Position numbers and translations under genes: made by a program. Shown here in pieces: positions 11,182 to 60,821 of a stretch of DNA of 64,000 bases. The notes under the pieces were generated by a model. That model searched no databases and was not told the DNA's origin. It saw only the letters and a program-made list of their open reading frames with translations. Numbering within the stretch: position 1 is the first letter of the stretch; each line of letters opens with the position of its first letter. The DNA is taken from IMG/VR virus record IMGVR_UViG_3300037722_000745, positions 160,001 through 224,000 of that record, one strand, 5' to 3'. The DNA is from a virus. Taxonomy: Duplodnaviria; Caudoviricetes.

Positions 11182-11654
11182 TCACCTATAGACAGATCCT
11201 GTCCATACAAATCTATCAAGGATTCCATTGGGCTCCGCTGAACTGCCTTGCTCTGAGCCTCTTTTTGAGCCTTCCGCTCACGCCTTTGCCTCATGAGCAT
11301 CTCTCCCTCTTTTTCAGCTTCTATGAGAGAGATGCGCTCCAAAATACGAGACGATCGACTAGCCCGCATTGAGATCTGATCGATCGACCCAGCGAACCTG
11401 GTCATCACGTTAGCGTAGGTTAGATAGATCGCCGTGGTGTCATCTGACGTGGATCTGCGGGTCCTTTGTACTATCCCCGCAGCTAAGAGATGTATCCGCT
11501 TCCCACGGTCGCGGATCTCTTCCTGCAATCGAGAAATCTCCGTGACCGTGCTAGCCACCGGAGTGAGATCGAACGGTCCGTTTTCAGCACTCACAATGTC
11601 GCCTGGATCCCTAGAAAGAACTGATTGACTGTTTGTGGGGTCTGCGTCACCCAC
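11178..11654 (-). CDS. Hypothetical helical protein
   Basis: 158 aa ORF overlapping the portal start. Confidence 0.6.
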   Translation of the reverse strand: MGDADPTNSQSVLSRDPGDIVSAENGPFDLTPVASTVTEISRLQEEIRDRGKRIHLLAAGIVQRTRRSTSDDTTAIYLTYANVMTRFAGSIDQISMRASRSSRILERISLIEAEKEGEMLMRQRRERKAQKEAQSKAVQRSPMESLIDLYGQDLSIGE

Positions 11655-31442: not shown

Positions 31443-32592
31443 ACTCCCTCAAAGCCTCGTCTGCATCCCGTTCAGCCGCAGACAATTCACCCTCCAATCG
31501 ATTCACAATTTGAAGCATTCTCAGTAAGCACTGCTCCCAAGCCGAAAGACGGCCGTACTTACTTTCAGCTGCTCCCAACGGATCCAACGCTGGAGCTTCA
31601 ACGTCCTGAGACTTCTGCATCCGTTCAAAAAATGCCTTCAGGAATCTCAGTCTCATGGACCATGCCGCCAAGGTCCGGTACTTCTCTTCCAACAGCGTAG
31701 AGCTAGCTGGAGAAGGAACGGCTATCTCCTCCACCTTAGACAGGGCTTCCACACCTCGGGTTTTCCCTGCCAACGCCTCAGCAAAAGACCTAAGAGACAG
31801 GTATGTCTCCCCACTGCTCTGTAGAGCGGAGATCTCTGGGACCTCTACACTCTCAACCGAAGACAGGTCTTTCACACACTTAGCGACGCTCAACAGAATC
31901 CCTAAGTACCGATCCAGACGTTCTACTTCTACCTCTGCTTCATAAGCTTGGCGCCCCAAATCTTCAACGCTACCAACCCTGGACACAACCTCGTCAAGTC
32001 CTTCATACGTCTCCAATGAGATCCTAAGATCCCGAACGTCCTGCTCTCTGACTTTCCGTAGAGAAGCGGTGCTCTTTCGGTCCTTCTCGACCAAACGCAT
32101 GGCGGTGTTGATTTGGTCCAGCTTAGCCACATCGGACAGGACGTCCGCTACCACAGTACCCGATTGATCCAAGATGAAAATTGGATGGAACTGGTCAGAT
32201 ACTTGAAGGACCTCCTTGTTGGTGCCCAACTTAACCGGACCGAAGGCGCTCTCTAGGAACTCCGGAGTACCTCTACCGGCCACTGTGTACTCGGAGCCAT
32301 TGAACACGTACCGATTGACAGAGTCCCCCTTCTCCCAAAGCAGATCAAAATCCTTGGCCTGGATGTGCACCGAACAGAAGCACTGACACGACTTGTTACC
32401 CTTCAACGCTCGTGGGCAATCCTGCTTGTGTCTAACACAGGGATCCGCAGGAGGACCTGTCAACGCCGCCTTGATGGCCCTAACCACCGCACTCTTACCG
32501 ATATTGGACTTCCCAACGACGGTAGAAAAACCATCGATCTCCACGACCTGATGGTCGATGGACTGGAAGTCTTTGATCTCTACACGGACCAT
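31378..32592 (-). CDS. SbcC/Rad50-like ABC ATPase, N-terminal half ending at the Zn hook
   Basis: IKDFQSI, Walker A GKSNIGKS, Q-loop, coiled coil, terminal CPTC. Confidence 0.82.
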   Translation of the reverse strand: MVRVEIKDFQSIDHQVVEIDGFSTVVGKSNIGKSAVVRAIKAALTGPPADPCVRHKQDCPRALKGNKSCQCFCSVHIQAKDFDLLWEKGDSVNRYVFNGSEYTVAGRGTPEFLESAFGPVKLGTNKEVLQVSDQFHPIFILDQSGTVVADVLSDVAKLDQINTAMRLVEKDRKSTASLRKVREQDVRDLRISLETYEGLDEVVSRVGSVEDLGRQAYEAEVEVERLDRYLGILLSVAKCVKDLSSVESVEVPEISALQSSGETYLSLRSFAEALAGKTRGVEALSKVEEIAVPSPASSTLLEEKYRTLAAWSMRLRFLKAFFERMQKSQDVEAPALDPLGAAESKYGRLSAWEQCLLRMLQIVNRLEGELSAAERDADEALREFGVLGVCPTCNRALYEAHEHV

Positions 32593-33887
32593 CAGGCTTC
32601 CGAAGCGGCCTCACCACTGGAAGAAGCCTCATCTTCTCCCTCACTGAGGGCCTCCGTCACTTCATCTTCGAGTCCTTCTAGGTCATCATCCACACTGTCG
32701 CCCTCGAGATCATATCCCTCCAACAACTCATCTTCCTCTTCCAACTCAATGGGCCCATCCACTGCGGAGGCGTTCACGGCTTGGACCAACTTGTCCCTCA
32801 GAGCCGTGTAGATCTTGTGGTTCTCCACTAGAAAGGCACGAAATTTTTCCTTGCCTTGAAAGCGGTGTTCCCCGATAGAGTAATAAGCCCCCTCTTTCTT
32901 GATCAACTTCTGGGCCACCCCTGTTTCAATCAGAGAGAAATGGTCGTCTATACCAGCTCCGTAGCGGATGAACACCTGCGCCGAATGCCCTTGCTTGGCA
33001 TCGATCTTAGACTTGACGACCTTGACGTCCGTCACATTCCCGTAAGGGAAGCGGCGCTTCCTGCCCGTCATCGGATCCTTGCGCTCGATGAACTCGGACT
33101 TGATGCGCTGCATCCGCAGCCGCAGGTAGGCGTAGAACTTCAGCGCCTTGCCGCCACTCGTGGTTTCGTTGTCACGCCCCGAACCTCCGATAAGCGCTCG
33201 AGTCTGGTTGACGAACACTAAGGTCGTACCTGGATGCGTAGGGTCTGGCTTCTCCTTGTTGTTGGGGTCCTTCGGGAACTTGAGAAGCCACATGGCGAAC
33301 TTGGGCAGCGCTCTCGAAAATTGACGAGCGACACCGCCAATAGCCGCCTCATCATCGAAGCCCTTGTCCAGCTCCTTTTTGGGCACCATAGCCGCAACTG
33401 AGTCGACTCCTATGATGTCAAAGCCAGCTGCCACGCCAACGAACATCATCTTGAAACCCTCCTCCATAGAGTCAGGTTGGTAGACAAGGAGCTTGTCCTC
33501 CTCGTAAGAAAGACCCAACGCCTTAGCGTAGGAATGGTCCAACGCGTGTTCATAGTCGATGAACATCGCTGCACCGCCGGCCTTCTGAGCTTGCACCATG
33601 GCTGAGATCAGCATGGTTGTCTTACCACTCGACTCGGGCCCATAGACTTCGATGATGCGACGACGAGGGAAACCTGGACAGATAGGGTTCTTACCGTCTC
33701 TCGACAAACTACCCCCGATCAGCATGTCCGTAGAAAACGATCCCGTCGACACAAAGGGAATCGTTGTAGCAGTAGGCTCCAGAGGCTTCTGTTTTGTGGA
33801 TTTCTGGATCGCAGATCGTGCCTTGGCGACCATTGCAGCTCGCGCTTCAGCTACGGGATTAACCGGTTCCTTCTTACGTGGTGGCAT
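32592..33887 (-). CDS. recA: RecA recombinase
   Basis: GPESSGKTT, FIDYEHALD, DSVAAMVP, FVNQTR, TSGGKALKFYA; acidic tail. Confidence 0.95.
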   Translation of the reverse strand: MPPRKKEPVNPVAEARAAMVAKARSAIQKSTKQKPLEPTATTIPFVSTGSFSTDMLIGGSLSRDGKNPICPGFPRRRIIEVYGPESSGKTTMLISAMVQAQKAGGAAMFIDYEHALDHSYAKALGLSYEEDKLLVYQPDSMEEGFKMMFVGVAAGFDIIGVDSVAAMVPKKELDKGFDDEAAIGGVARQFSRALPKFAMWLLKFPKDPNNKEKPDPTHPGTTLVFVNQTRALIGGSGRDNETTSGGKALKFYAYLRLRMQRIKSEFIERKDPMTGRKRRFPYGNVTDVKVVKSKIDAKQGHSAQVFIRYGAGIDDHFSLIETGVAQKLIKKEGAYYSIGEHRFQGKEKFRAFLVENHKIYTALRDKLVQAVNASAVDGPIELEEEDELLEGYDLEGDSVDDDLEGLEDEVTEALSEGEDEASSSGEAASEA

Positions 33888-34545
33888 GTCTCAACGCCTC
33901 ATGTCTGGGGAGAATTGAAAAGCGGAAGAACCGCTGGTTTTCCTTGAAAATAGCTCCTCTGTAGACGGTCTGACCCGACCTCTTGCCTTTCGTGAAGGTG
34001 TGGATCTTGGCGAAAGCTCGAAGCTCCGCAGGAGTCAAATCTGCTTCAGTCAGCTCCCCACGAAGGAACATCCAAAAACGAGCGGTGAACTTAGCGACGT
34101 GGTACCCATCAGCCTCGTCAGAACTCCACTTAGCGATCCCGGTCTCCGCCTTGGCTGCGGAAATCATGTCCGACTTGAACATCTTGCCTTTGCGGAGCTT
34201 GGGATCCTCTTTGACCATCATCTTGACCGTGCTCGGATCGAAGTACACCACGTCCTTGCGGCGGCTCCAGAGAGCTTCGTTGACCACCAGAAACAAGGCG
34301 TAGAGTCCTTCACTGAACAGTTCTCCATACGGCGGGGATTCGACCCCCACAGCCTCGATGAGCGGGTAGTGGTCCAACAACTCCACGAGCCACTGTCGGA
34401 GCAAAACGTAGCGCTCCACCCAAATCGTCTTGGAGGTCGTGGACCACCGCCCTCGAGCAACAACACGAGCGTGGTCCACGACCGACGAATTGTGAATCAG
34501 CCAGCCAAAACCTGTGAGAGAAGGATCCAGTCCTAGCGTGAACAC
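33874..34545 (-). CDS. ruvC: RuvC-like Holliday junction resolvase
   Basis: (M)FTLGLDPSLTGFG, GVESP, SDEADG. Probable GTG start at 34545; the ORF-track extension to 34572 lies inside a CRISPR repeat. Confidence 0.8.
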   Translation of the reverse strand: MFTLGLDPSLTGFGWLIHNSSVVDHARVVARGRWSTTSKTIWVERYVLLRQWLVELLDHYPLIEAVGVESPPYGELFSEGLYALFLVVNEALWSRRKDVVYFDPSTVKMMVKEDPKLRKGKMFKSDMISAAKAETGIAKWSSDEADGYHVAKFTARFWMFLRGELTEADLTPAELRAFAKIHTFTKGKRSGQTVYRGAIFKENQRFFRFSILPRHEALRHATT

Positions 34546-34553
34546 AGTTGAGC

Positions 34554-34659
34554 GTCTCGCCGCAGCGAGCAATCAGGATCGATTCCCAGAGGGCGTCAGC
34601 GAGACGCAACTCGGGTCTTCTGGGTCTCGCCTCAGCGAGCAATCAGGATCGGTTGCCAA
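34554..34659 (-). CRISPR. Orphan Cas12j-type mini-array (repeat-34 nt spacer-repeat)
   Basis: 36-bp repeats at 34624-34659 (32/36 identical) and 34554-34589 (34/36 identical) to the main array repeat; hairpin CTCGC/GCGAG intact in both. Confidence 0.93.
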
Positions 34660-34670
34660 CACTGTTTGGC

Positions 34671-35559
34671 TCACACCTGATCCAGCAGGTCGTGCAAGTT
34701 GTCCGCCGAGACGTCCTCTGCCGCAGATCCGCCAAGACCCAATTTGGCCTTGAGTTGGTCGGTGGTCACCTCCCGGAACGGAATCAGCTTGTCGTACAGG
34801 TTGATAGCCTGTCGGAGGACGGCTTGCCTGAGCTGGTCGTTCTTGAGCCAGACCGCAGGCCCGGTAAAACTCACGCTGATGTTCTGGTATTGAGGCTCTT
34901 TGCACTCCAGCTTGATGTCTTGAGAAGCCAGAGCCATGCCGTTTTCACGAAGACTGTCGTTGACCTTCCAGATGTCTTCGTAAATCCGGTTGCTGAAGCG
35001 CCACGGAAGTATGTCGAGCTTGCCCTTTTTGATCTGATCAGCGAGGGCTTCCTTGTTGATGATCTTGCCCTCGCTATCCGTCGGATAGATCAGCAACAAC
35101 GTGGTGAAGTAGGTCTTCACCTCAGGCAGCCTCTTCCAGACAGCGTCGGCCTCCGCCCCGTCTTTCCCCAACCGAGACAGCACAAACCCTAGCCCCTCCT
35201 GGTAGTGCGCCTTCATGACCTTGAAATGCGCCGTGCCGATATCGAGCTTCTCAATGCCAGTCAGCTCGTCAACGCTCTTGTCCAGGCTCTCCGCCTGCTT
35301 CTTAAGAGCGGTCGAGGCCACCTGCTTGATCTCCTCTCGGCTCAGCTTCTGATCTTTCTTCTTCGCTTCTTTGACAGCTTGGCGAACGGTATTCGCGTCT
35401 ACCGTGTGGAAATAGACAAACGCGCACCGAATCGTCTGGCCTTTTTTCGTCAGCTTAAGCCAATCGTTCGACTGTCCTCCGACGTTCTTCTCGTCGGGGG
35501 CAAGAGAAACTTCACCCTCAAAGTCATACTCTTCTGGAATATCGATATTATCACTCATC
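34671..35559 (-). CDS. Putative single-stranded DNA-binding protein (T4 gp32-like)
   Basis: WLKL..G..R, aromatic-rich OB-like core, acidic C-terminal tail ending DLLDQV; upstream of ruvC/recA. Probable start ATG 35559. Confidence 0.55.
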
Positions 35560-35632
35560 TTATGCCTCAATGTTTGGTCGCCCCAACCACTGAGTCCGTT
35601 AGACAAGGAGGTTGAGATACGACGTATCAGGT

Positions 35633-35740
35633 GACAGGCTCAGGCCGACATTGCCAGGTGGTTGTCCCACTCTTAATGGAGGTGGGCTTCCGTTGCGACT
35701 CGTTGAGGAAAGCCAAAGGGCGGGTCTCCCCAAGCCTGTC
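35633..35740 (-). ncRNA. Candidate structured RNA / ssb leader
   Basis: 5' GACAGGCT pairs with 3' AGCCTGTC, closing several internal hairpins; begins at the position predicted for +1 of the upstream GGTGTAG motif. Confidence 0.4.
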
Positions 35741-35749
35741 AAAGACCCG

Positions 35750-35757
35750 CTACACCA
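35750..35757 (-). promoter_or_regulatory. GGTGTAG motif (putative phage promoter) upstream of the ssb operon
   Basis: TGGTGTAG in intergenic DNA; overlapped by the inverted repeat GCGGGTCT/AGACCCGC (35720-35750). Confidence 0.5.
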
Positions 35758-35774
35758 GCGCAACAAGAAAATAG

Positions 35775-36632: not shown

Positions 36633-36640
36633 CTACACCG
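36633..36640 (-). promoter_or_regulatory. GGTGTAG motif 9 nt upstream of ATG
   Basis: CGGTGTAG-GCGACAGCT-ATG(36623). Confidence 0.55.
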
Positions 36641-37860: not shown

Positions 37861-40031
37861 GAGACTAGATCCCTGAGAATAGAATTGCGATGTACAACCT
37901 TGTCATTTGACACGGCCTTGAATACTGCCTCAACCTCACCCAGGATCCAAACCTTTCGGCGGGCCCGTGTGATAGCTGTGTAGAACAAATTCCGTTGTAA
38001 CATACTTCTCTGAGTCTTCACCAGTGGCATGATCACAGTGTCGAACTCTTCCCCCTGACACCGGTGAACTGTCACTGCGTAAGCCAGCTTGAGCATGTGC
38101 TCAGCGTCTGTCTTAGGGATCTCCACCTCCATATCAGGGACCCCCCCAACGCCATGAATCCGCAAAATCAGGTTCTCCGCCGTGATCCCAACAAGCTTCC
38201 CGATATCTCCGTTGTAGACGTTCAAATTGTAGTTGTTCTTGATCACCATCAGGCGATCGCCAATCCTCGTCACAAACTCCGGCAAGGCCCATGTGGGCTG
38301 CCCCAGATCTGGATTGAGTTCGTCTCGCAGCCTGGCATTTAGGTAGTTGACTCCTACAACCCCCTCGTATTTCGGCGACACGACCTGAAAGTTCTCGTCA
38401 CGGCTTTTGAGTTTGGCAGCCAACTGAACGACGAAATCCACAATCAGATCCTCGTCCGACGTAGCCAAGAAACGGAATTCGGAATCCTCTTTCTCCGGTA
38501 TGTCCAAAGGGGACATACCACGTCGCACCCGATGAGCTGCCAGCACGATGTCACTCGTCTCAGCTTGACGAAACACGTGCTCCAATCGTATGTGTGGGAC
38601 CGCTTCACAGGCCAGCAGTTCTCGAAGCACGTTACCAGGACCAACCGAGGGCAGCTGCGCATCGTCTCCGACCATGATCACGATGGTAGTCGGTGGTGTG
38701 GCATCGAGAAGCCGGTAGAACAACTCCTGGTCGACCATCGAAAACTCGTCAATGATGAGTGCCTGTGTCTCCAGTAGACAGTCCCGATTGTGTCCCCAAG
38801 CGAACCCATCGTACCGCAGTGCTCGGTGAATGGTTTGCGCTCCAACTCCAGTCACCGAAGTGAGCCGCTTTGCCGCAATCCCAGTCGGGGCCATCAGCAT
38901 ATGTTGGACATTCAACTGCCTAAAGAGCTGCACAAAAGAACGAACCAACGTCGTCTTACCCGTCCCCGGGGCCCCGGTAACTACCAACACTCGAGTCATA
39001 AGGATCTGCTCGACCGCTCTTCGCTGCTCCTTCGACAACTCGATGTTGTTGAACATTTCGTAATTGGACAGGAAAGCACCGAGATCTACTTGCAGCTCAG
39101 AAGGTGCCAAGAGTTGAGATAGCTTCTCGGCCGCCCCACGTTCGTACAGATACGTGCTAGGGAAGTACACCCCGACGCCAGCGTCCACCTTGACTGATCC
39201 CGCATCAGCCAGTGATGCCAGAACTTTGGAGACTTCCGAATCCAGATCAGGGCACGAGAAAGGAGCGACGTGTGAATACGACGCCACTTTCAACATCAGC
39301 CCGCTCACAGCTCCACGCTGGACATAGAGATGTCCCTGCTGAATCTGTTCCCGGAGAGTCCACAGCACACCCCCAACAACTCGACGGGGGTCATCAGGAC
39401 CGATTCCTTTCGCCACCGCTATCTTGTCCGCTCGATAGAACGAGAACCCTTCGATCTCCATCAAACGGTAAGGGTTCTCTGCAAGGACCTCGACAGCCTT
39501 CGCCCCAAAGCACTGGTAGACACTCGCTACCATTGAAGCCCCCAGCTCATACTCCTGCAGGAAATCCGAAAGAGTAGCCACCCCTCGGAGATCCAACCAC
39601 TCCTTCGAAACCCTCCGCAGCTCCCTACGCTCATCCTCGCTAGCAGCAACCTCTACGAGCCGATCAACCTCCCCGAGAGCGTCATACGATTGGGTGCCGA
39701 ACTCCCTCACAACGCGACGAAGAAGCCCGAAGTCGCCTCCAAAGATCGAAACACAGTTTGTCAGGAAGTACCTGACGTCACTCGCATTGCGACCCCACGG
39801 ACGCCACAACGTAGATCTGAATTGCAAACCGTATTTAGGGTGCCTAACCCACCCCCCTTCAAACTCAAGGACCGCCCCTGACACGAGCGTGGACACGCCA
39901 AAAAAGTGGCCTGTTACCTTCGTCTCCCTGACATTAGAGCGATCCTCGCATTCGTACACCCTGACCACGAGGATGTGAAACGTCTCGCTGGTGTGGACTA
40001 CCCGCTCGACCCGTCCGCGGAGACAACTCAC
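37842..40031 (-). CDS. recD2: RecD2-like SF1B helicase
   Basis: N-terminal OB/HHH region (ENPYRL..IEGFSF..AD), GAPGTGKTT, IIDEFSM, GDDAQLPSVGPG, AYAVTVHRCQGEE, RNLFYTAITRA. Confidence 0.92.
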   Translation of the reverse strand: MSCLRGRVERVVHTSETFHILVVRVYECEDRSNVRETKVTGHFFGVSTLVSGAVLEFEGGWVRHPKYGLQFRSTLWRPWGRNASDVRYFLTNCVSIFGGDFGLLRRVVREFGTQSYDALGEVDRLVEVAASEDERRELRRVSKEWLDLRGVATLSDFLQEYELGASMVASVYQCFGAKAVEVLAENPYRLMEIEGFSFYRADKIAVAKGIGPDDPRRVVGGVLWTLREQIQQGHLYVQRGAVSGLMLKVASYSHVAPFSCPDLDSEVSKVLASLADAGSVKVDAGVGVYFPSTYLYERGAAEKLSQLLAPSELQVDLGAFLSNYEMFNNIELSKEQRRAVEQILMTRVLVVTGAPGTGKTTLVRSFVQLFRQLNVQHMLMAPTGIAAKRLTSVTGVGAQTIHRALRYDGFAWGHNRDCLLETQALIIDEFSMVDQELFYRLLDATPPTTIVIMVGDDAQLPSVGPGNVLRELLACEAVPHIRLEHVFRQAETSDIVLAAHRVRRGMSPLDIPEKEDSEFRFLATSDEDLIVDFVVQLAAKLKSRDENFQVVSPKYEGVVGVNYLNARLRDELNPDLGQPTWALPEFVTRIGDRLMVIKNNYNLNVYNGDIGKLVGITAENLILRIHGVGGVPDMEVEIPKTDAEHMLKLAYAVTVHRCQGEEFDTVIMPLVKTQRSMLQRNLFYTAITRARRKVWILGEVEAVFKAVSNDKVVHRNSILRDLVSCRAGA

Positions 40032-42630: not shown

Positions 42631-42951
42631 TCAATGGGTTGTTTTCGTGGCTTTCAGCCGCGGGACATCCTCAGGATCAAGCTGCCCAGACTCTACAAGG
42701 CGAGCCAAGATCTCAACCGATTTCAAAGGGGTCACGATAAAACGGACTTCCTCCCCCTGATACTGCTCGAGGATGGTCTGAACGTCCAAAAAATCGAAAG
42801 ACCCATCGGCCTGCTGGATCCGTAGGACCATGCGACCATTCATCGGATCCAGCTCTACAACACCCTCGATAAGGGCTCCCAGATCCAAACCCTCAACGGA
42901 CGGGACAGACGCCATTTGCACACTCTTCAATCTCGACATCTCCACCGTCAT
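42631..42951 (-). CDS. Hypothetical protein
   Basis: 106 aa ORF downstream of RNR. Confidence 0.55.
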   Translation of the reverse strand: MTVEMSRLKSVQMASVPSVEGLDLGALIEGVVELDPMNGRMVLRIQQADGSFDFLDVQTILEQYQGEEVRFIVTPLKSVEILARLVESGQLDPEDVPRLKATKTTH

Positions 42952-45900
42952 TCACTAGCGGATGGTCGTGTTTGATCCCAGAGAACATCTCCTGAAACTG
43001 CGATTCCGAGATCTCTTCGTACGGAGCTTGAGCATAGCCGTGGGCTTTCGCCAACAAGCTCGTGGATTTAAACCGAGGCACGTACTTCGCCAGCAGCTCC
43101 GCCGTGCGCTCCCTTTCGGTCTCGGGATTGAACGAGAGCGTAGCGGAGACAGAATTGTCCGCCCACCACTCCTGGATCAACGCCTGCCGCTCGAATTGGT
43201 CGTCAATCGTCTCAGTCTGCACAGTCACCCGCGTGTGGACCGCCTTGGTCGGGAACGAGAACACAAGCGTGTGCCCGGTCTGGTCGTAAACATCGTACTC
43301 CCACGCAACCCCAGCCTCTTGTAGCGCTCTAGTCATAGGCTCATTGACGGCCAACCGAGCCCGACGGATGTAGTACGGGGCGAAAGGTGCGTGAATGCCA
43401 GGGCTGCTGGAGTTGAGCAGGCTGATCGTCCCAGAAGGCTTGGTCGTCGTGACCGCGTTCGGGCGGGCTACCCCCAGCTCATCGGCGTAGGAGTTGGCCT
43501 CCAGCCGGCACACCTCGAACCAACGAGCGAGCTGAGGTCCGACCCAGTCGAAATCACAGATGCCACCGAGTCCGACGCCCAAACGCATGTTCTTGCGACG
43601 CACCTCGTCCGACTCCTCATCCAGCAACGGAGTCAGACGCTGGCGCAGACAATAACGGGTGAGCAGGCGGAACACAGTGCCTGGATCGGTCGAACCGTCG
43701 AATTGCGCCGGAAATGCTTCTGCTAGGTTACAAGCTTCTCGATTGTGCAAGGGAATTTCGCCGCATTGTCGCACACTTACGCCTGAAAACCAGAATTTGT
43801 CTAGATTTTTGTGCTCCTTCGTTATTACAGACACAGTGTGGTTTTCGTCCACCGTGAGGTTGTAGACCGTGTGCTCTCCTTCCAGCTCCTCCACACGCGC
43901 AACCTTGTGGTTGTAATCGGACGCAGCTTCCAAGACCTCCGAGAACTTCTTGAAGCCGTGCTTGAGTGTCGGCCCGATACGGGAAGGCACCCCTTCCCCT
44001 TTGCAAGCCAAGGACCATTCCTTGCGATTCGGGTGGCGTCCTAGCCTGAAAGCCAGATCAGAACAAACACGAGCCTGCTCCACTTTGGTCGCGACCTGCT
44101 TGGACCCGTAGTGCGTGTCCATCGCCTGAAGCCGTTTCGCTTTGACCTTCGCGTCACTGTTGATATAGGCGTTGCCACAAGCTTCTGAGCAAAAGGATCG
44201 CTCACGATAGGAATGCTCCACCTCAAACGAGGCCGAACACCCTTCACAAGACTTGACCACAAAGACCTTGGAGTCTTTGATGAAAGCTTCGTACCCTTGT
44301 TCCAACATGGAGCAGAGCGTTTTGATGACACGTGGATCGGTGTCGACGTGCTCCAAGCCAAGCTCCGAAGCACATTGCTTGGCTAGCTCCACAACAGACT
44401 TCCAGGATCGATAGCCAGAGAAGGCTTGCGGGATACCCTGTGCCGAGGCGTACTCCAGCCAATCCTTCTTGCTGAATCGGCGTCCCAATTTACGAGTCAA
44501 CGTCAGACCATGATCCTTCAACTCACCACAGGTCAAACCTGACCAACGACCATTCGCCTCGCCAGAGTTGTCTTTCTCTCCGTGCAACTTGGCGTGATCA
44601 CGAAAAGTCATGATCTGGAGGTTATCAGGAGCGTTGTTCAGCTGATCGTAGTCCTTATGGTGGACTACAAGGCCGCCAGTGTTCGCGAACCCGTTCTCCG
44701 CACATACCGAATAGACCCGATCCCAGCCATCCGGGTCCTGGAAACAAGCAATCAAGCGATGCTCAAATATCTTGTCTCGATCCGGGTGACGCGTGTTGCA
44801 GTAAATACGATAATAGTCCTTACCTCCCTTCTTAACCTTCTCCAGAGCCTTCTTGAAACGCGGCAAACTGTCCCCAGGTTGGAGATCTTTCGCCTCTACT
44901 GGAGTACCATCACGTAGCAAGAAACCGTGGTTCGGCGTGGTGTCTAGGTGACTACCATCATCCAACCACACCCGGACAAGCTTTTGGTTGTAGCCTGTGA
45001 TCCGGGGGTTACGACCCATCTTGATCTCGATCTTGCCGGTCTCCTTGTTCAGGGAGTAAACCGGCACGTCCTCGCCCTCCTCCGCGAGCTGGCGGATCGA
45101 GACAGAATTGCGACCGTCTGCCACGGCGATCTTCGTGTCTCCAGAAAAACACGGATTGATGACGGTGGCCCCAGGATCGGTCTTGCGGATGAGCGCCAGG
45201 TTCAGCAGACCGGGCTCCCCGTAGAGGATGTTGTCCTCGACCATCCCATGCCAATCGAACTCGGCAATCTGCTTGTCTGTGTAAAACAGCAGCGAGTTGT
45301 TGCTGGTGTGCCGATGAGACTTCACAGCTTCGAAGTCCTTCTTCGCGTCCCGGAAAGGCCGATCCTCCGCGTCGCCCAAAACGATCAAGGCTGACCGGCG
45401 GACATTACCGGACTTCACACAGAACCCGATCAAGTTGGTGATATCGAGGCACTCAACGCTCGTCAAGCCGCGTCCCACCGCTCCACGCACGATGTCCCAC
45501 GAAAACCTCAGCAGCATCGACAGCGGGCCCGGACCGCACGCAACACCTCCAAACGTACGAATAGGCTCGCCCCGAGGGCGGATGTCCGAAAGGTCTACGA
45601 TGATATCCCGACCTTCGAAAGCCGCCTGGAGAACGAGACGCAAGGACTCTACCCACCCCTCACGTGAGTCAGGGATCTGGTGGACCGGGGTCTGACCGTT
45701 CAGGAACTCTTTGTCATTGGGCCCCACATCCTCAACGTTAGGATGATCATGGCGGCACCACACCGCCATGCGTGAGGAACCTGATCCTGCACTGACCTTT
45801 CCCAGCAAGCCGAGGGATCCCAATCCCACCCCGACGCCTCCGCCCAACATCAACTGGTTCATCACCCAACACCAGTCGTCGATCGAGCGGAGCGTGACTC

Positions 45901-47125
45901 CCCAGCAATTGCCAGTGAGGACACCGCCTTCCAACGTAAAGGAGCGTGTCTTCGGCTCGACTACGCAAAAGACCTCCTCCTCGCGACCCTCGTCTACAAC
46001 TCTGAACACTTGGTACTCAACAGGTTCCGGGCGCAGCGTGATCGTAACCAAAGGCGCAGATCGAGGACCGTAGTTCGTGTCTCCGGTCTCCACGGAGTAT
46101 CCCGTCACGCAGTAACCCAGCAAGGGTGCACGTTCGGTTGCCCATTGGATCGCCTGTGCGTTCTGAGATCCCAACCGAGGGCCCTGCTTACTTGGATCCT
46201 TACGGTCACTACCATCCATCGCTTTCCAACCTTCCAAGAACCCAGCTTGGTAGGTCAACGATGTGGCTCTATCCGGGAGGGCTTTCAGGTTGGCTTGTGA
46301 TCGCAGGAACACCACAGAGTCGCCCTGATATGAAGGAGGGGAGCATGTGTTGTGGTGCAAAGGACTCGACTCTAACACCGTCAGATACCGCGCTTTGGCC
46401 CCACAAAGCCGAACCTGGTATTGCCCCTCTCGGCCCGTAGACTGCGACCCGTCCCCGAACACGAGACCATGCACAAACCCTGCACGGTAGAAGCTCGACT
46501 CCACATCATGTTGGGTGGGCGTGACGACAACACGATCGCCAACGGAGAGGTCAGTCACTTCACCGCGGTTTGACGTGAACCACCGATGGTCCCGCGTCGC
46601 GCAGAATTCCATAACGTACTTGGAGGCCCCAGGGAGCTTGAACCCGTAGGTCAAAAGCTTCTGCTTACCGAAGGACCGAACCTCAGCCGGAGACCACCCA
46701 CCGTCCTTGGTCAACACCTCCACCTGCTGGCCTACCAAGTCCCGAAGAGACGCAAGCTCCCCGTTCGCCCAAAAGCGAGTCTCCCCTGCAAAGCAATTGT
46801 ACCTAGCGTCCGCTGGGATCCCTTCAACACCTCCGACCCATAGCCCACGCCCAGGGGGTAGCGCCTGACCCGTCCAAAAAAGATGAAAGAGCTTCTCTGC
46901 CTCGCGTTGGGATGGCTGCTGATGAGCCAGGGCCATATTACCTTCCACTACGCGACGAATCGTATCGGTCCACGTCTCACCATTGCGGCAGTACTTTGAC
47001 AGGTATGTTGACCGAGCTAAGAGCGTGCGGAATGGATCGCCCATCTGCCGGTACAGGGCCAAGAAAGATTCCTGGAGCTTGAAAGGCTGTGCTGTCTCCG
47101 TCGAAGTGTGGCGGACGATCTCCAT
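42893..47125 (-). CDS. nrdJ: Class II (B12-dependent, monomeric-type) ribonucleotide reductase with two inteins
   Basis: PPGRGLW, YN|CWG, LMLGGGVG, SGNVRRSA, INP|CGEIPL..CNLAE, KPSGTISLL, C-terminal CANGVCP; no ATP cone. Confidence 0.92.
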   Translation of the reverse strand: MEIVRHTSTETAQPFKLQESFLALYRQMGDPFRTLLARSTYLSKYCRNGETWTDTIRRVVEGNMALAHQQPSQREAEKLFHLFWTGQALPPGRGLWVGGVEGIPADARYNCFAGETRFWANGELASLRDLVGQQVEVLTKDGGWSPAEVRSFGKQKLLTYGFKLPGASKYVMEFCATRDHRWFTSNRGEVTDLSVGDRVVVTPTQHDVESSFYRAGFVHGLVFGDGSQSTGREGQYQVRLCGAKARYLTVLESSPLHHNTCSPPSYQGDSVVFLRSQANLKALPDRATSLTYQAGFLEGWKAMDGSDRKDPSKQGPRLGSQNAQAIQWATERAPLLGYCVTGYSVETGDTNYGPRSAPLVTITLRPEPVEYQVFRVVDEGREEEVFCVVEPKTRSFTLEGGVLTGNCWGVTLRSIDDWCWVMNQLMLGGGVGVGLGSLGLLGKVSAGSGSSRMAVWCRHDHPNVEDVGPNDKEFLNGQTPVHQIPDSREGWVESLRLVLQAAFEGRDIIVDLSDIRPRGEPIRTFGGVACGPGPLSMLLRFSWDIVRGAVGRGLTSVECLDITNLIGFCVKSGNVRRSALIVLGDAEDRPFRDAKKDFEAVKSHRHTSNNSLLFYTDKQIAEFDWHGMVEDNILYGEPGLLNLALIRKTDPGATVINPCFSGDTKIAVADGRNSVSIRQLAEEGEDVPVYSLNKETGKIEIKMGRNPRITGYNQKLVRVWLDDGSHLDTTPNHGFLLRDGTPVEAKDLQPGDSLPRFKKALEKVKKGGKDYYRIYCNTRHPDRDKIFEHRLIACFQDPDGWDRVYSVCAENGFANTGGLVVHHKDYDQLNNAPDNLQIMTFRDHAKLHGEKDNSGEANGRWSGLTCGELKDHGLTLTRKLGRRFSKKDWLEYASAQGIPQAFSGYRSWKSVVELAKQCASELGLEHVDTDPRVIKTLCSMLEQGYEAFIKDSKVFVVKSCEGCSASFEVEHSYRERSFCSEACGNAYINSDAKVKAKRLQAMDTHYGSKQVATKVEQARVCSDLAFRLGRHPNRKEWSLACKGEGVPSRIGPTLKHGFKKFSEVLEAASDYNHKVARVEELEGEHTVYNLTVDENHTVSVITKEHKNLDKFWFSGVSVRQCGEIPLHNREACNLAEAFPAQFDGSTDPGTVFRLLTRYCLRQRLTPLLDEESDEVRRKNMRLGVGLGGICDFDWVGPQLARWFEVCRLEANSYADELGVARPNAVTTTKPSGTISLLNSSSPGIHAPFAPYYIRRARLAVNEPMTRALQEAGVAWEYDVYDQTGHTLVFSFPTKAVHTRVTVQTETIDDQFERQALIQEWWADNSVSATLSFNPETERERTAELLAKYVPRFKSTSLLAKAHGYAQAPYEEISESQFQEMFSGIKHDHPLVNDGGDVEIEECANGVCPVR
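43766..45151 (-). mobile_element. RNR intein 2 (462 aa, HNH-type endonuclease; ends Arg-Gln)
   Basis: CFSGDTKIA ... TPNHGF ... EHRLIA..VVHHKDYDQLNNAPDNL ... VYNLTVDENH..SVRQ|C. Confidence 0.88.
45908..46795 (-). mobile_element. RNR intein 1 (296 aa, LAGLIDADG; ends Gly-Asn)
   Basis: CFAGETRF ... TRDHRW ... GLVFGDG, GWKAMDG ... VFCVV..LTGN|C. Confidence 0.9.
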
Positions 47126-55859: not shown

Positions 55860-55913
55860 CTCCTGCTCAGGCGTCGGGTAGAGCCGGTATTTGTAATTCC
55901 GCCGGAGGTCCAC
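55860..55913 (-). pseudogene. tnpB: TnpB N-terminal stub (IS200/IS605 OrfB)
   Basis: MDLRRNYKYRLYPTPEQE matches the YKYRLYPT.EQ start of TnpB; the rest is absent. Confidence 0.65.
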
Positions 55914-55922
55914 TCCGAGGCC

Positions 55923-55930
55923 CTACACCA
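55923..55930 (-). promoter_or_regulatory. GGTGTAG motif 9 nt upstream of tnpB-stub GTG
   Basis: TGACTGGTGTAGGGCCTCGGAGTG; 21/24 identical to the sequence before cas12j. Confidence 0.55.
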
Positions 55931-55971
55931 GTCAAGCGCGAGCTTTGCCCTTTAGCCGTGGAATTGTGGCA

Positions 55972-57375
55972 TCAATCCGCGCCCTTGAGGTTCGAGACCG
56001 GGTAAAGCCGGTGTTCAACTCTCGCAATCCCCTCCGCCTCTAGAACGGCGAGAACCGCGTCGAGATCCTTGTAGACGTGCCCGCACTCATCAAGCGGCGT
56101 CTTCTTGTGATTGCCCACGATCCCCTCGATCTGGACGCCGCCGAAGGTTCGCTTGACGCTCGCCATCTCGTTGTCGATTCGAGCCTGCTTGTGCCCCAGC
56201 CGGCGCTTCGCTTCTGAGCGGCCTAAGATCCGACCCGAACCGTGGTTCACCGAGCAGGCGGACTTGTAGGCCCCATCTCCCGGGAACAGGATCGCAGCAC
56301 CTTCGTACATCGAGCCCGGAATGAGGCACGGGTGACCCGTAGTCTCCCACGCCGTCCCTACCAGGTCAGGATGCCCTGCCGGAAAGGCTCGGGTTGCTCC
56401 CTTCCGATGCACGAAGCCCCGCTTGTGGGTCCCGTCGGGCAGCACAAGGGTCTCTTCCTGCACCAGGTTGTGGCTGATCTCGTAGTAGACTTCGAGGTCA
56501 GCGTTGAACACTTCCTGCGTCGCCTCTTGAACCCCCACCACGATCTGATGACGGTTCGCGACCGCGAAGTTGGCCGCCGAGTTGTGGTAAGCCCAGTACT
56601 CTCGACCAAGAGGCTCATCTATTCGAAGCCAGGAATCCTCTCGACGGTTCTTCGGTAACCCCCGGAGAGCGGCCCCTTCGTAGAAGAAGTGGTTCGCCGT
56701 CTGCCAACCGTAGCCCCGCGACCCACAGTGGACCATCACCCAAACCGACCCGTCATCTCGATCGACTTGCATCTCGATGAAGTGGTTGCCGCCACCCACG
56801 CTACCGAGCTGGTCGGACACCTTCGAGTAGGCTTTCTCGATGTGACTTAGATCCAACGTCTCCGGGATCGGGATGTACCGCCGCTCACAGAGCGCCTCGT
56901 TGATCCCCAAAGACTTGGCCCCATATCGAAGCACCTCGTCGACCTGACGAGAGCCCAGCCGCCTCATGAGGGCAGGCCGCTCGGACCCTACGCCGGTCGC
57001 CACCCGCTTCTCGACTTCCTCGACCCACTGCTGACGCTTGTGCCGACTCCGAACCGCCTTGGCTCCAAGGTTCACTTTCATGCAAAGAGCCCCGCACGAG
57101 ATGTCGTAGCCCGAGCCGCCCTGGATGATCGTGTCTTCAGTCACGATGACCGAGCCGACCGGCACGCCGTATCCCCTGTGGCAATCCGGCATCAGGTACG
57201 CCCCAATGACCCCCTCGTAGGACGCCCCGTTCGCGATCTGCTGCCAGACCGACTCTTCCGACGCCGCATAAAGGTCATCCGACAAAAAGGCATGAGCCTC
57301 CACCCGCATCTGCCCAACGCGGGGCAGCACGTAGTGATTGTCGCTGACCTTCTGAGCCTGGTACTTGAAAGACAT
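55972..57375 (-). CDS. rtcB: RNA-splicing ligase RtcB
   Basis: MPDCH.GYG.PVG, GYDISCG, GGGNHFIE, HCGSRG, SHN, HRKGAT, IPGSM, HGSGR, YKD. Confidence 0.95.
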   Translation of the reverse strand: MSFKYQAQKVSDNHYVLPRVGQMRVEAHAFLSDDLYAASEESVWQQIANGASYEGVIGAYLMPDCHRGYGVPVGSVIVTEDTIIQGGSGYDISCGALCMKVNLGAKAVRSRHKRQQWVEEVEKRVATGVGSERPALMRRLGSRQVDEVLRYGAKSLGINEALCERRYIPIPETLDLSHIEKAYSKVSDQLGSVGGGNHFIEMQVDRDDGSVWVMVHCGSRGYGWQTANHFFYEGAALRGLPKNRREDSWLRIDEPLGREYWAYHNSAANFAVANRHQIVVGVQEATQEVFNADLEVYYEISHNLVQEETLVLPDGTHKRGFVHRKGATRAFPAGHPDLVGTAWETTGHPCLIPGSMYEGAAILFPGDGAYKSACSVNHGSGRILGRSEAKRRLGHKQARIDNEMASVKRTFGGVQIEGIVGNHKKTPLDECGHVYKDLDAVLAVLEAEGIARVEHRLYPVSNLKGAD

Positions 57376-57379
57376 GAGA

Positions 57380-57598
57380 CTACTTCACGTAGGAGAAGGT
57401 GCCGTCCGAAGCCGCCTCCAACCCGAGCTGCTCGCCGGGAATTCGGCTTAGCACGCCCAAGGGCTTGCCGCCCTTCGTGATGATAAAGGTCCGACCTAGC
57501 TCCACCATACGCATCACCTCTCCCGGCCGACCGCGGAGTTCAGTCATCGTGATGGTCTCTAGATCGTTCAACTGGACGGCTTCCTGAATCCTCTGCAT
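57380..57598 (-). CDS. Phd/YefM-family antitoxin, orphan
   Basis: ITMTELRGRPGEVMRMVELGRTFIITKGGKPLGVL. Confidence 0.8.
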   Translation of the reverse strand: MQRIQEAVQLNDLETITMTELRGRPGEVMRMVELGRTFIITKGGKPLGVLSRIPGEQLGLEAASDGTFSYVK

Positions 57599-57614
57599 GG
57601 GGCTCCAATTAGGA

Positions 57615-57644
57615 ATGGGGCGACAGCCGAAGCCGCCGCCCCAT
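57615..57644 (-). terminator. 13-bp hairpin with C(UUCG)G loop downstream of the CRISPR array
   Basis: ATGGGGCGGCGGC-TTCG-GCTGTCGCCCCAT; the G-U wobbles work only on the minus strand; the U-tract is weak. Confidence 0.6.
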
Positions 57645-57704
57645 ACCGTCTCAGATTGACAGGGTCGGGTGGCCGTCTTCGAGCCACACTGGTTACGTTA
57701 CCGC

Positions 57705-58179
57705 GTCTCGCCGCAGCGAGCAATCAGGATCGGTCCCCAGCGGCTGATTCCTGCCGGAGGCAGTCACGCCTACTCCGCGTCTCGCCGCAGCGAGCAATCA
57801 GGATCGGTCCCCAGCTGATCATCACGATTCAGCTGCCGGCATCCGCTTCAAGTCTCGCCGCAGCGAGCAATCAGGATCGGTCCCCAGGACGTCCTCGAGA
57901 TCAACGGCAACGAGTACGACGCGAGGTCTCGCCGCAGCGAGCAATCAGGATCGGTCCCCAGCTACGGCGTCCGACGTGATGAGCGTGGCCGCGAGAACGT
58001 CTCGCCGCAGCGAGCAATCAGGATCGGTCCCCAGCAGCGTGCGAGCTGCGGATCGGTGGCTGCAGCCTTGTGTCTCGCCGCAGCGAGCAATCAGGATCGG
58101 TCCCCAGCTGCAAAAACTGGACTTCGCGTTATATGCCGTCCTCGTCTCGCCGCAGCGAGCAATCAGGATCGGTCCCCAG
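57705..58179 (-). CRISPR. Cas12j CRISPR array: 7 identical 36-bp repeats, 6 spacers (36-38 bp)
   Basis: Repeat CTGGGGACCGATCCTGATTGCTCGCTGCGGCGAGAC at + starts 57705, 57779, 57852, 57926, 57999, 58072, 58144; the ATTG-hairpin-AC 3' end is typical of CasPhi repeats. Confidence 0.98.
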
Positions 58180-58210
58180 GGCTCCAGTGGAAGCCCAGAC
58201 ATTCCAATCG

Positions 58211-58239
58211 GTTATAAGCCGCATTGCGAGCGGTCCCAA
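58211..58239 (-). promoter_or_regulatory. Possible sigma70-type array promoter in the leader
   Basis: TTGGGA-N17-TATAAC about 30 nt upstream of the first repeat. Confidence 0.35.
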
Positions 58240-58307
58240 GTACCACAGATTCAGATGTCAAAGAACACGGGCGGAAAGTGCCCAGGGTGTGGGCTAAACG
58301 ACCGAAT

Positions 58308-60464
58308 TCACTCAGCCGCGAGAGACTCCAGGGGGGTAGACGCCACTGAGGCTCTCGCGGCTTTCCGGAGGGATACACCAGTGATGGCTACCATCGCGAT
58401 ATTATAGGCAGCCACATCGATGTCCGCGTTCCCACGGTACCCGCAACAAACACATATGAAAGCTTCACGATTGACTCGGTCTCGATTGGCCTTGTCACAG
58501 TGCCCGCACTCGGGGCACGTCCGTGATGTATTATACGGATCCACTTTGATCACCCGATAGCCTCGGTGCACAGCCAAGTCGCAGAACGCTCCGAAGAGAG
58601 CGTCCATGAGCCACCGCCCTTCCTGTTTGGCTGCGAAGAAACCACCCCACCCTGACTTACGGCTCCCCTTCCCGCCTCTACGGAAGCTGTGATGAAGGTC
58701 CTCGACCGCTACGATGACCTTTCCGCACTGAGCCCGCTTCTCGGCTGTCCTAATGACGTAGTTGACGCAGTGTCGCGACAACTCCTTCTTGCGGATGGAT
58801 AGCTGGTGGTACTTCGAGCTGTTCCTTTCAGCCTCCCATTTGGCTTCGTTCAGTGCCTTGCGGGTCTCGGATGTCAGTTGAGGCCGAAAATGCTGAGCCC
58901 AGTTCACGTCCCATCTCTTGCGAATCTCGGTCTTCCGCTTTTTCCCTTTACCCTTGAAGAAGGGGAACATGTAGAGCGTGTCGTCCACACCACGTTCCTT
59001 CGCCAAGTCAGATAGAATAGAGCTTCGACTGTTCACCTTGTCCCAGGGTACTTCATCCACCGATAGCCCGAGATGGCCACACACCTGCATCTTGGCTTGC
59101 TCTGGTCCGAAGGTATCCAACGCCAACACCTCCGCTTGTTGTTCGGCGGTCAGAGAGCGTACGGCTGCTAACCGCAAATTCTCTTGGTGCTTGTCATACG
59201 CCTTACGAAACCGGAAGAAGTCCTCTACAGTCTGCTCCGGTAACGTAAAAGCCTGCAACCGTTCTACGCACTTCCCTGGACGAATCCGTAGCGCATTCGC
59301 AGCGATCAAGTTGTTGACGCCTAGATCGACACCTACGAGGCTAAACGTCTCCGTGGTGTCATCTAGCATCTTCGACACATAGGATCCCTTCACAACCTTG
59401 GCCTTGACGACCGGCACGACCCCTTGCTTATAGATCAACGTGGCGGTGTAACGTACCGGCTTGCCCGGCTTCTTCACTACACTCAACGTGGGGTCATTCG
59501 TCACCAGATTCAGAAGACTCTCAATCGTCACCGGCACCGATCGGTCTAACAATTTGCGGTACTGTGTGTTGCGGAGAAGCCCTCGGAGATCGAGAAGTGC
59601 CCAGTCATCAGCTACCCTAACGACCGCCAACAACATGTTGTCGTCGATCGCCCCACCACGTGAGCGTGCCCAAGAAGCCCGTTTCCGACGGTGCTTCTTA
59701 ACGGAAAGATTTTCTCGATCCCATGGGGGTACATACCCCGGTTGACCTTCAGGTATCTCTAGCCGATCTACACCACAAGCGGCGATGGGTGTTGACGGAT
59801 CTCGGCTATAACCCGTCACCCCAGGAATGGACCCAGGCACATAGGGCTTCAACTTCATATGCTGGTACCCAAACACGCTACAGTTGATCCCCGGGCGGTG
59901 CCGCAGATGACCTGTCTCATCGAGGGCCGTTTCAGGTTCGTCGAGTGTTAGAAGAGGTAGGCCACGTTCTGCCCGATGCTCGTTCCGCTGTTCAATCTTT
60001 GCTACCTTTTTGCTGTTGCGATTCTCAACCTTCTTGAGAACCCCCTCGTAGGTGGCCCGAGCGTTTTGGAAAATCAGGTTGAGACCTTGGACATTGAAGT
60101 ACCCGTCCGTGTCCACCCGCGTAGCCTTAAGCCAGGCCCTAAGCCCTGCTTCAGACTTCCCAGGATCCGTAGCCTTGAACTCCTCGTAACTCTGAGCATA
60201 GACGTACTTCTGGATCACCACCGACGCTTTGTAGATCGGCCACTCCTCCAAAGGCCGACTCATCGCCACGATGTTACACTTCACCGGAGGTTTGAAATTA
60301 GGCTGTGTTGTGCCCCCCTTTCCTTCAAGAAAGGCCACAGCAGCGCCTTCGCCTTTCGACTTGAGGATCCTACCAGCCTGCCTCGAGTCATGTTTTTTGA
60401 ACCGCAGCCCAGGGAAGGACTTCTTACAGAGGGCGACGAGTGGGGTTTCCTTTTTGTCTGGCAC
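58308..60464 (-). CDS. cas12j: Cas12j (CasPhi) type V effector, 718 aa
   Basis: CasPhi-like N-terminus (FKPPVKCNIV..SRPLEEWP, VQGLNLIF.NA..YEGVL, DRLEIPEGQPGYVP), RuvC VGVDLG, VAVEDL, TSRTCPECG..CVCCG..ADIDVAA; adjacent array; no cas1/cas2. Confidence 0.95.
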   Translation of the reverse strand: MPDKKETPLVALCKKSFPGLRFKKHDSRQAGRILKSKGEGAAVAFLEGKGGTTQPNFKPPVKCNIVAMSRPLEEWPIYKASVVIQKYVYAQSYEEFKATDPGKSEAGLRAWLKATRVDTDGYFNVQGLNLIFQNARATYEGVLKKVENRNSKKVAKIEQRNEHRAERGLPLLTLDEPETALDETGHLRHRPGINCSVFGYQHMKLKPYVPGSIPGVTGYSRDPSTPIAACGVDRLEIPEGQPGYVPPWDRENLSVKKHRRKRASWARSRGGAIDDNMLLAVVRVADDWALLDLRGLLRNTQYRKLLDRSVPVTIESLLNLVTNDPTLSVVKKPGKPVRYTATLIYKQGVVPVVKAKVVKGSYVSKMLDDTTETFSLVGVDLGVNNLIAANALRIRPGKCVERLQAFTLPEQTVEDFFRFRKAYDKHQENLRLAAVRSLTAEQQAEVLALDTFGPEQAKMQVCGHLGLSVDEVPWDKVNSRSSILSDLAKERGVDDTLYMFPFFKGKGKKRKTEIRKRWDVNWAQHFRPQLTSETRKALNEAKWEAERNSSKYHQLSIRKKELSRHCVNYVIRTAEKRAQCGKVIVAVEDLHHSFRRGGKGSRKSGWGGFFAAKQEGRWLMDALFGAFCDLAVHRGYRVIKVDPYNTSRTCPECGHCDKANRDRVNREAFICVCCGYRGNADIDVAAYNIAMVAITGVSLRKAARASVASTPLESLAAE

Positions 60465-60473
60465 CCGGAGGCC

Positions 60474-60481
60474 CTACACCA
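60474..60481 (-). promoter_or_regulatory. GGTGTAG motif 9 nt upstream of cas12j GTG
   Basis: TGATTGGTGTAGGGCCTCCGGGTG; no Shine-Dalgarno. Confidence 0.55.
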
Positions 60482-60482
60482 A

Positions 60483-60821
60483 TCAGATGCGAGTCTTGCC
60501 CTTTGGCCGCGGAATCGTGGCGTCATGCAGCCGAAAGCCCAGCTTTGCCTGACCCAACCACGCAAGGACCTGAAGCGTCGGATGGGCCACCAGGTTGTGG
60601 AAGGCCCACGCATGCCTGGCAACCCTGAAGCGCTTGCCTTCGATCATCGCCGGCCGAAGATCCATCACAAGGTCGAGCGCTTGCTGTCCTTCAACCACGT
60701 ACAAGCCGCTGTCTCGCGTGTAGACTTTGACCCTCAAGTGTCTCTCCAACTCTGCACAATCCACCTGGAGAATCGCCTCCCGAAGGATGAGCTGGTCGAG
60801 CACTTTCACGTGAAACGACAC
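60483..60821 (-). CDS. Hypothetical phage protein (probable GTG start 60821)
   Basis: WAFHNLVAHP.LQVL.W.G....RLHDATIP; the start overlaps the upstream TAG (TAGTG). Confidence 0.6.
   Translation of the reverse strand: MSFHVKVLDQLILREAILQVDCAELERHLRVKVYTRDSGLYVVEGQQALDLVMDLRPAMIEGKRFRVARHAWAFHNLVAHPTLQVLAWLGQAKLGFRLHDATIPRPKGKTRI

Follow-up and report, generated by a model that had tools for sequence, protein, structure and literature searches.

The Cas12j (CasPhi)-encoding phage considered here carries, inside a recombination gene cluster and 23.6 kb away from its nuclease gene, a mini-CRISPR of two repeats that, judged by its sequence, is genuine, is maintained by selection and is cognate to the Cas12j that the phage itself encodes. 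The stretch that was analyzed (the window, 64,000 nucleotides (nt)) comprises bases 160001-224000 of the IMG/VR record IMGVR_UViG_3300037722_000745, hereafter G000, which is 323,174 bp long and for which CheckV estimates a completeness of 68%. Throughout, R1 and R2 are the two mini-array repeats and the handle is the last 19 nt of the Cas12j repeat (positions -19 to -1). Judging from a scan of the whole record, the mini-array belongs to a family of ectopic handle copies, at least ten in number, that is spread over the genome. The whole analysis was computational, and five Cas12j phage records were scanned for the handle, which should be considered when referring to the comparisons discussed below.

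Both direct reading and a repeat search show that the Cas12j repeat of this phage recurs on the minus strand in two copies of 36 nt, one on either side of a 34-nt spacer. Together they fill the 125-nt gap between a gene for a gp32-like single-stranded-DNA-binding protein (SSB) and ruvC, in CRISPR RNA (crRNA) sense on the operon strand. The elements in question are:

34624..34659, minus strand: R1, mini-array repeat of 36 nt, 32/36 identical to the main-array repeat, with the loop variant TGAG
34590..34623, minus strand: spacer of 34 nt, with a small internal hairpin (5-bp stem) and no target found
34554..34589, minus strand: R2, mini-array repeat of 36 nt, 34/36 identical, its last 27 nt exact against the array
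34546..34553, minus strand: linker of 8 nt from the R2 handle to the ruvC start codon, without a Shine-Dalgarno sequence
57705..58179, minus strand: main CRISPR array, seven identical 36-nt repeats and six spacers of 36-38 nt, adjoining cas12j
58308..60464, minus strand: cas12j (CasPhi), 718 amino acids (aa), E 2e-159 to CasPhi-2

The SSB-like stop codon lies at 34673-34671 and R1 begins 11 nt later. Compared with the array consensus, R1 is mismatched at positions 1, 5, 6 and 28 and R2 at positions 6 and 8; over positions -27 to -1, R2 is identical to the array and R1 differs by one loop base. An initial annotation of this DNA had reported the same coordinates, mismatch counts (four and two), spacer and orientation, all of which were correct. 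It had also confined the mismatches to positions 1-8 and the hairpin loop, position 28 in the R1 loop being indeed the sole exception to 1-8, had described the CTCGC/GCGAG stem and the ATTG..GAC 3' part of the repeat as intact, and had given a distance of 23 kb from cas12j, which we measure as 23.6 kb. The mini-array, cas12j and the main array share the same orientation.

The repeats are real: within the window, nine instances of the 27-nt 3' part were counted (seven in the main array and two in the mini-array), as opposed to none in 100 shuffles. The mismatches of R1 and R2 are, moreover, distributed unevenly, with 5/16 at repeat positions 1-8 as opposed to 1/56 at positions 9-36 (Fisher p=0.0016), where neutral decay at the rate of positions 1-8 would be expected to leave about 17 changes. 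This skew indicates that the 3' 28 nt of the repeats are being kept and that the part contacted by Cas12j is under constraint; in the Cas12j3 structure, the handle is defined by contacts to C-1, U-18 and the G-17/A-2 pair (PMC8298400). The change G6A is common to both repeats, so that R1 and R2 go back to a single variant repeat and have become different over time. Three features that mark a mini-CRISPR are found here, namely at least two cognate direct repeats with an array-like spacer, a cognate and apparently active effector in the same genome and retention of the handle nucleotides that Cas12j contacts.

Scanning the whole of G000 revealed eight further sites with only the last 19 nt of the repeat (L054-L057 are pieces of G000):

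G000 11450 (L054:2451-2469), minus strand: solitary handle, no stem change
G000 87499 (L055:2500-2518), plus strand: solitary handle, compensatory stem CTCAC/GTGAG
G000 224976, 228545 and 235636 (L056:976-994, 4545-4563 and 11636-11654), minus strand: solitary handles, no stem change
G000 242052, 243439 and 245626 (L057:5552-5570, 6939-6957 and 9126-9144), minus strand: solitary handles, no stem change

In these copies the 19-nt core is 16-19/19 identical, while the preceding 17 nt are near random (1-9/17). The core that is kept corresponds exactly to positions -19 to -1 and includes C-1, A-2, G-17 and U-18, the contacts seen in Cas12j3 (PMC8298400). Counting the mini-array as well, there are ten ectopic copies, of which nine match the 19-nt handle at 18 or all 19 bases and one deviates from it by the compensatory stem pair; the TGAG loop variant recurs in two of the seven solitary copies without stem changes. 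All eight are non-coding. Five lie among the genes of a tRNA island, one lies about 27 nt upstream of a gene for a 651-aa VWA-domain protein, one directly past the RNase HII stop codon on the opposite strand, and one, on the plus strand, between two minus-strand open reading frames (ORFs). Three solitary copies have a 44-nt unit in common, in which the motif GGTGTAG ends 11 nt before the handle.

The tRNA island itself (G000 224455-247829) starts 455 nt past the window end and contains 42 tRNA genes and a transfer-messenger RNA (tmRNA) gene, all on the minus strand. A second type of hairpin, CTCGCC-N11-GAGCGAGAC, with the stem and 3' end of the handle but with an 11-nt loop, was observed in four copies (L057:10441-10463, L057:9737-9759, L057:6856-6878 and L056:7583-7605), three of which share the upstream bases AAAGGAAG.

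To put the mini-array in context, related phages were considered. Eight IMG/VR contigs encode a RuvC-like protein of 68-78% identity in the same SSB-ruvC synteny, and none of the eight has a Cas12j repeat at this junction. Their junctions carry different, sequence-unrelated hairpins instead, with z of -4.2 to -6.6 in four of the five that were folded and a weaker -1.5 in L012; a stable stem-loop after the upstream stop codon, conserved in structure and not in sequence, is thus what these junctions present. No Cas12j was found in the sequence of nine related records searched, of which only one is complete. When five related records in which no cas12j was found were scanned, four of them (1.13 Mb in total, one complete) had no handle copy at up to three mismatches. 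The exception, G001 (44% complete), has one exact handle with the loop TGTG (L009:494-512, a piece of G001) between the stop codon of one gene and the ribosome-binding site (RBS) of the next, a 94-aa gene, and this handle is absent from the orthologous junction of the present phage (G000 111156-111180, 81% protein identity). Handles are therefore gained and lost at intergenic junctions. In L010, a contig from the same metagenome as G001, a hairpin with the CTCGC/GCGAG stem of the handle ends 4 nt short of the ruvC ATG. Within this small sample, cas12j is carried by the one genome that has many handle copies. The initial annotation had suggested that relatives be checked for a repeat at the same junction and for whether it tracks with cas12j: in this sample, many copies co-occur with the gene, but G001 has one handle though no cas12j was found in it, and the junction repeat was seen in none of the eight relatives.

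These comparisons bear on the view that the mini-array has no Cas12j-related function and is what array recombination or the ectopic integration of a spacer left behind, or else a mere substitute for the hairpin of the relatives. The sequence-unrelated hairpins at the relatives' junctions, the turnover of handles between orthologous junctions and the lack of cas1 in the G000 record all agree with it. Nonetheless, a structural hairpin needs neither a loop identical to that of a CRISPR repeat nor the unpaired flanking bases, yet both are kept, and the pattern of intercistronic hairpins in relatives leaves the identity of the handle to the CRISPR repeat unexplained. As the distribution of mismatches rejects neutral decay and the ectopic copies retain the handle almost base for base, we consider a functionless origin quite improbable.

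Other phages with their own Cas12j provide a second comparison. Four IMG/VR records with Cas12j proteins of 34-38% identity were found via the family alignment, and each was scanned for its own handle. The complete 529-kb G010 has one exact ectopic handle, for which no self-matching guide was found, and one with two mismatches, the latter between a stop codon and an RBS, while G012 has six ectopic copies. Neither G000 nor G012 contains the handle of another phage, and each genome's ectopic copies match only its own array; the ectopic copies thus follow the resident array. In G012 (IMGVR_UViG_3300048837_000975, of which L048 is a piece), five handle-only units (L048:2117-2373) stand behind a sigma-70-like promoter, directly upstream of cas12j. 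All five of their guides match, from guide position 1 and over 14-32 nt, a 249-aa ORF located just upstream (L048:1339-2081), four of the five with TBN protospacer adjacent motifs (PAMs). No homology was found between the cas12j-upstream genes of G012 and those of the window.

The location of handles relative to genes raises the possibility that they act purely in cis, as Cas12j binding or cleavage sites that control the processing, stability and translation of mRNAs and tRNA precursors, with a 'spacer' that has no target. Handles are found close before a start codon or RBS in ruvC (8 nt), G001 (16 nt) and G010 (18 nt), and others lie between tRNAs. The solitary copies, moreover, keep the handle without an array-like spacer or a second repeat, and no credible second site exists in G000 for any of the would-be guides downstream of them. 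Engineered Cas12a repeats placed in mRNAs act in this manner (PMC9943656). Both mini-array repeats, however, keep 28 nt and so extend beyond the 19-nt handle, and the repeat-spacer-repeat layout is better suited to crRNA biogenesis, for which reasons a purely cis-acting element seems rather unlikely to us.

The spacer was searched for potential targets at several levels. Exact matches to its first 20 nt are lacking both in IMG/VR and in 185,579 species genomes, no site at up to three mismatches was found in five related phage records, and blastn against GenBank phages returned only chance-level matches (E >= 0.4). In the phage's own genome, as far as the 68% complete record covers it, only partial matches at chance level were obtained, with no seed match near cas12j or the operon. 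The best own-genome site, G000 38742-38758 on the minus strand, matches 15 of the first 17 nt next to a TGG PAM and was treated as chance (BLAST E 0.4); it falls where a 217-aa ORF ends, and the next start codon follows about 40 nt later. The target search proposed in the initial annotation, which had raised a dedicated regulatory guide, thus yielded neither a self or regulatory target in the own genome nor any target in relatives, IMG/VR, GenBank phages or species genomes.

These results should be considered when judging whether the mini-array encodes a regulatory guide of the CreR/CreA kind, that is, a crRNA that steers Cas12j to a partial match in phage or host and represses transcription there. 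The handle-only guides of G012, with their matches to the gene upstream, set a precedent, and, like CreA/CreR units, the repeats of the mini-array have a degenerate 5' end. On the other hand, the one weak candidate for a target, the site at G000 38758, is at chance level, and the mini-array does not stand beside the cas operon, its distance from cas12j being unlike that of known Cas-regulating mini-arrays. We regard such a guide as unlikely.

A further proposal is that of a decoy or sponge, in which handle RNAs would titrate the Cas12j of the phage itself or of a relative that co-infects the cell, similarly to Racr, the RNA anti-CRISPRs. Solitary repeat units in viruses are known as such inhibitors, including inhibitors of type V-A (PMC10651486), and the 44-nt unit of three solitary copies holds a motif associated with gene starts that is maybe a promoter. 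The copies, however, mimic the phage's own array and would thus blunt its own nuclease, and the mini-array, with its two repeats, is not the single unassociated repeat that defines a Racr, a description that fits the eight solitary copies. In addition, none of the 185,579 species-representative genomes carries the handle (searched as 21 nt). Taken together, a decoy appears very improbable. A scan of metagenomes for the handle returned 24 single matches, about the number expected by chance for 18 specified bases and mostly in unrelated GC-rich DNA, and it was not used as evidence.

The mini-array lies within a co-directional gene cluster that, from domain and fold assignments, reads as SSB-RuvC-RecA-SbcCD-like. 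On the minus strand, the order is a RecD2-like helicase, a NUDIX protein, a 282-aa ORF, the 295-aa gene, the mini-array, the RuvC-like resolvase and RecA, followed by a protein in which AAA_23 and related P-loop ATPase domains were matched weakly and then by a calcineurin-like phosphoesterase. The last two may be SbcC/SbcD-like, given their domains and their position after recA. The genes and the signal nearest to the mini-array are:

35750..35756, minus strand: GGTGTAG motif, within the conserved leader of the SSB gene
34671..35558, minus strand: gene for the gp32-like SSB, 295 aa, identified by fold only
33874..34545, minus strand: gene for the RuvC-like Holliday-junction resolvase, PHROG 159, E 4e-13
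32592..33887, minus strand: recA, Pfam E 5e-51, overlapping the ruvC end by 14 nt

The GTG start codon of ruvC at 34545, 8 nt past R2, is aligned with the ATG of the eight relatives. While the labels ruvC and recA given in the initial annotation follow directly from these matches, the label ssb found no support in any sequence search: Pfam, PHROGs, NCBIfam and PDB sequence searches returned nothing for the 295-aa protein. It is backed by fold. An AlphaFold (AF2) model built from a 60-sequence profile-search alignment reached a predicted local distance difference test (pLDDT) score of 89 and matches the RB69 and T4 gp32 cores with Z of 9.7 and 9.3, respectively (165 residues, 3.5 A), the next unrelated chain being at 5.0; the modeled structure thus identifies the gene as a gp32-like SSB. 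An earlier AF2 model from 6 sequences (pLDDT 46) was unusable, and PF23977, a lead from the Atlas, found no support when 60 members of the family were scanned with Pfam.

The SSB gene is preceded by a 216-nt leader (window 35559-35774), in which the blocks GGTGTAG, TTGACAG, a GC hairpin and TTGGGGCGACC are conserved in relatives and which, by analogy, resembles an autoregulated gene-32-type leader. Three of five relatives keep GGTGTAG upstream of the gp32-like gene, and a fourth has it with one base changed. The motif occurs in 82 copies in G000, including window 35750-35756 and 36633-36639; 25 of the 82 precede an ATG that opens an ORF of 60 aa or more, 19 of those at 8-11 nt, while permuted-motif controls gave an average of 8% and a maximum of 21%. 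It could be a promoter or an RBS-like signal, and its copy at 35750..35756 is a possible start of the transcription unit carrying the mini-array. Around the SSB-ruvC junction, sigma-70 promoter and terminator scans gave nothing above shuffles, and no Rfam family matched the junction. Elsewhere in the window, a B12-dependent ribonucleotide reductase of 1410 aa (window 42893-47125) is split by an intein with an HNH endonuclease domain.

The explanation of the mini-array that we prefer, with a confidence that falls a little short of even, is that of a Cas12j substrate maintained within the operon, which supplies one extra crRNA and subjects the ruvC-recA mRNA to cutting or capping. We prefer it because the repeats are real and sense-oriented, because an apparently intact cognate Cas12j is encoded in the same genome and because repeat positions 9-36 are constrained. 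The mini-array would presumably be transcribed with the operon, as the genes are co-directional and no terminator was found. Cas12j would then recognize the 3' handle of each repeat (TTGCTCGCTG[C/A]GGCGAGAC) and process the transcript in its RuvC site as it does with pre-crRNA, which is cut there upstream of the repeat (PMC8298400; PMC12141684); the protein holds the handle together with an 18-bp guide duplex (PMC12141684). One extra crRNA with the 34-nt spacer would be released, directed at a target not yet sampled. The cutting would also separate the SSB message from the ruvC-recA message, whose 5' end would become a Cas12j-bound handle. As this handle is only 8 nt from the ruvC start codon, translation or stability of ruvC should depend on Cas12j occupancy.

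Several points weigh against this explanation and need to be considered. No protospacer for the spacer was found in any search made, and the spacer is 2-4 nt shorter than those of the main array. The whole junction can be folded into one long structure (-52 kcal/mol, z -2.7), which could do the job of the relatives' hairpin without Cas12j. The copies at G000 11450 and 87499 are antisense to their flanking genes, so that not all copies can act within mRNAs, and two of the four other Cas12j phages (G011 and G013) have no ectopic handle copies. The initial annotation had suggested a dedicated coupling of Cas12j to the double-strand-break (DSB) repair genes, which is not supported, as the same handle is found at eight non-coding sites without a link to recombination and as handles come and go at orthologous junctions. 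The position beside repair genes is probably incidental, and the mini-array would then be an instance of a general intergenic element.

A broader possibility, which we put forward tentatively, is that the handles constitute a dispersed cis-code, through which Cas12j would serve the phage as its own RNA-processing and regulatory factor or, like TnpB, as a guide system that spreads itself. Besides cutting foreign DNA, it would act at ten or more sites, the SSB-ruvC-recA operon and the 42-tRNA island among them. In G012 this would have gone a step further, in the form of an array of handles only that is driven by a promoter and directed at the phage's own DNA.

With regard to the effector, the RuvC D/E/D columns (D380, E588 and D681) are invariant in the Cas12j family alignment, and the gene is apparently intact and active. 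A single-sequence search of IMG/VR retrieved no close relatives of this Cas12j, and the GenBank phage set contained no Cas12j. An identical protein is found in three other public assemblies, where cas12j is spaced 270 nt from the next gene as compared with 711 nt here (window 57598-58308), so that the array must be shorter or collapsed in those assemblies. A 64-nt direct repeat (81% identical; window 60462-60525 and 55911-55974) brackets a 4.55-kb cassette of cas12j, the array, a Phd-like gene and rtcB, which suggests that recombination inserted the cassette or can remove it. RtcB, encoded beside the array, was considered as a partner in RNA processing by Cas12j and dropped on the grounds of end chemistry: RuvC-type cleavage leaves 5'-phosphate and 3'-OH ends, which are not those known to be joined by RtcB.

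Cas12j is a minimal nuclease, known from huge phages, that cuts DNA and processes its own pre-crRNA, and its benefit to the phage is poorly understood. Ten extra copies of the handle that the nuclease grips, at operon junctions and between tRNA genes, with almost none in the relatives in which cas12j was not found, would suggest that Cas12j has a second role, at the RNA level or in regulation. In accordance with the initial annotation, to whose author the arrangement was not known for Cas12j, our literature search found no description of ectopic Cas12j repeats, and type V-J is not mentioned in a survey paper on degenerate regulatory mini-CRISPRs. Comparable elements of other types are, nonetheless, known.

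Virus-borne mini-arrays (PMC11656645) are likewise short repeat-spacer-repeat units in viral non-coding gaps, away from a full cas locus. In the known cases, however, host repeats are copied, the host Cas is used and the spacers mostly match related viruses, whereas here the phage's own Cas12j array is copied, no target is found in relatives and the unit lies inside an operon. CreA/CreTA, CreR and crRNA-like RNAs (PMC8501985; bioRxiv 10.1101/2023.03.10.532045; 10.1101/2023.03.03.530964) resemble the mini-array in having two partly degenerate repeats and one spacer; use of the effector outside defence is plausible here too, and a V-A precedent exists. Those units are located in or beside the cas operon, with a spacer partly matching a nearby promoter, while ours is 23.6 kb off and has no detectable self-match. 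The eight solitary handles are similar to Racr (PMC10651486) as intergenic single repeat fragments that keep the effector-binding hairpin, although Racrs mimic and inhibit host systems and the solitary handles mimic the phage's own system, number eight in this one genome and are clustered in the tRNA island. With the engineered Cas12a direct repeats in mRNAs (PMC9943656), the mini-array has in common a repeat hairpin in a coding transcript that would be cut by the effector's pre-crRNA processing. Those repeats are synthetic, and their natural counterpart, which Cas12j would provide if our explanation is true, is a proposal.

In TnpB systems, the omega-RNA consists of a scaffold followed by flanking DNA that serves as the guide. 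A solitary handle directly before native flanking sequence as a would-be guide is comparable by analogy only, as neither mobile-element ends nor TnpA are available for comparison; since the 3' end of the handle, GAC, is not a TBN PAM, such a locus would be immune to itself. From viral mini-arrays, CreA/CreR and Racr, the present elements are distinguished in four respects: the absence of a detectable target, the number of copies, the location within an operon far from cas12j and the virus-encoded V-J effector. If the proposed role is true, the biology of ectopic repeats described for these three groups would extend to type V-J and to an effector encoded by a virus. The dispersed and operon-embedded Cas12j repeats are thus an extension of known ectopic-repeat elements rather than an unprecedented kind.

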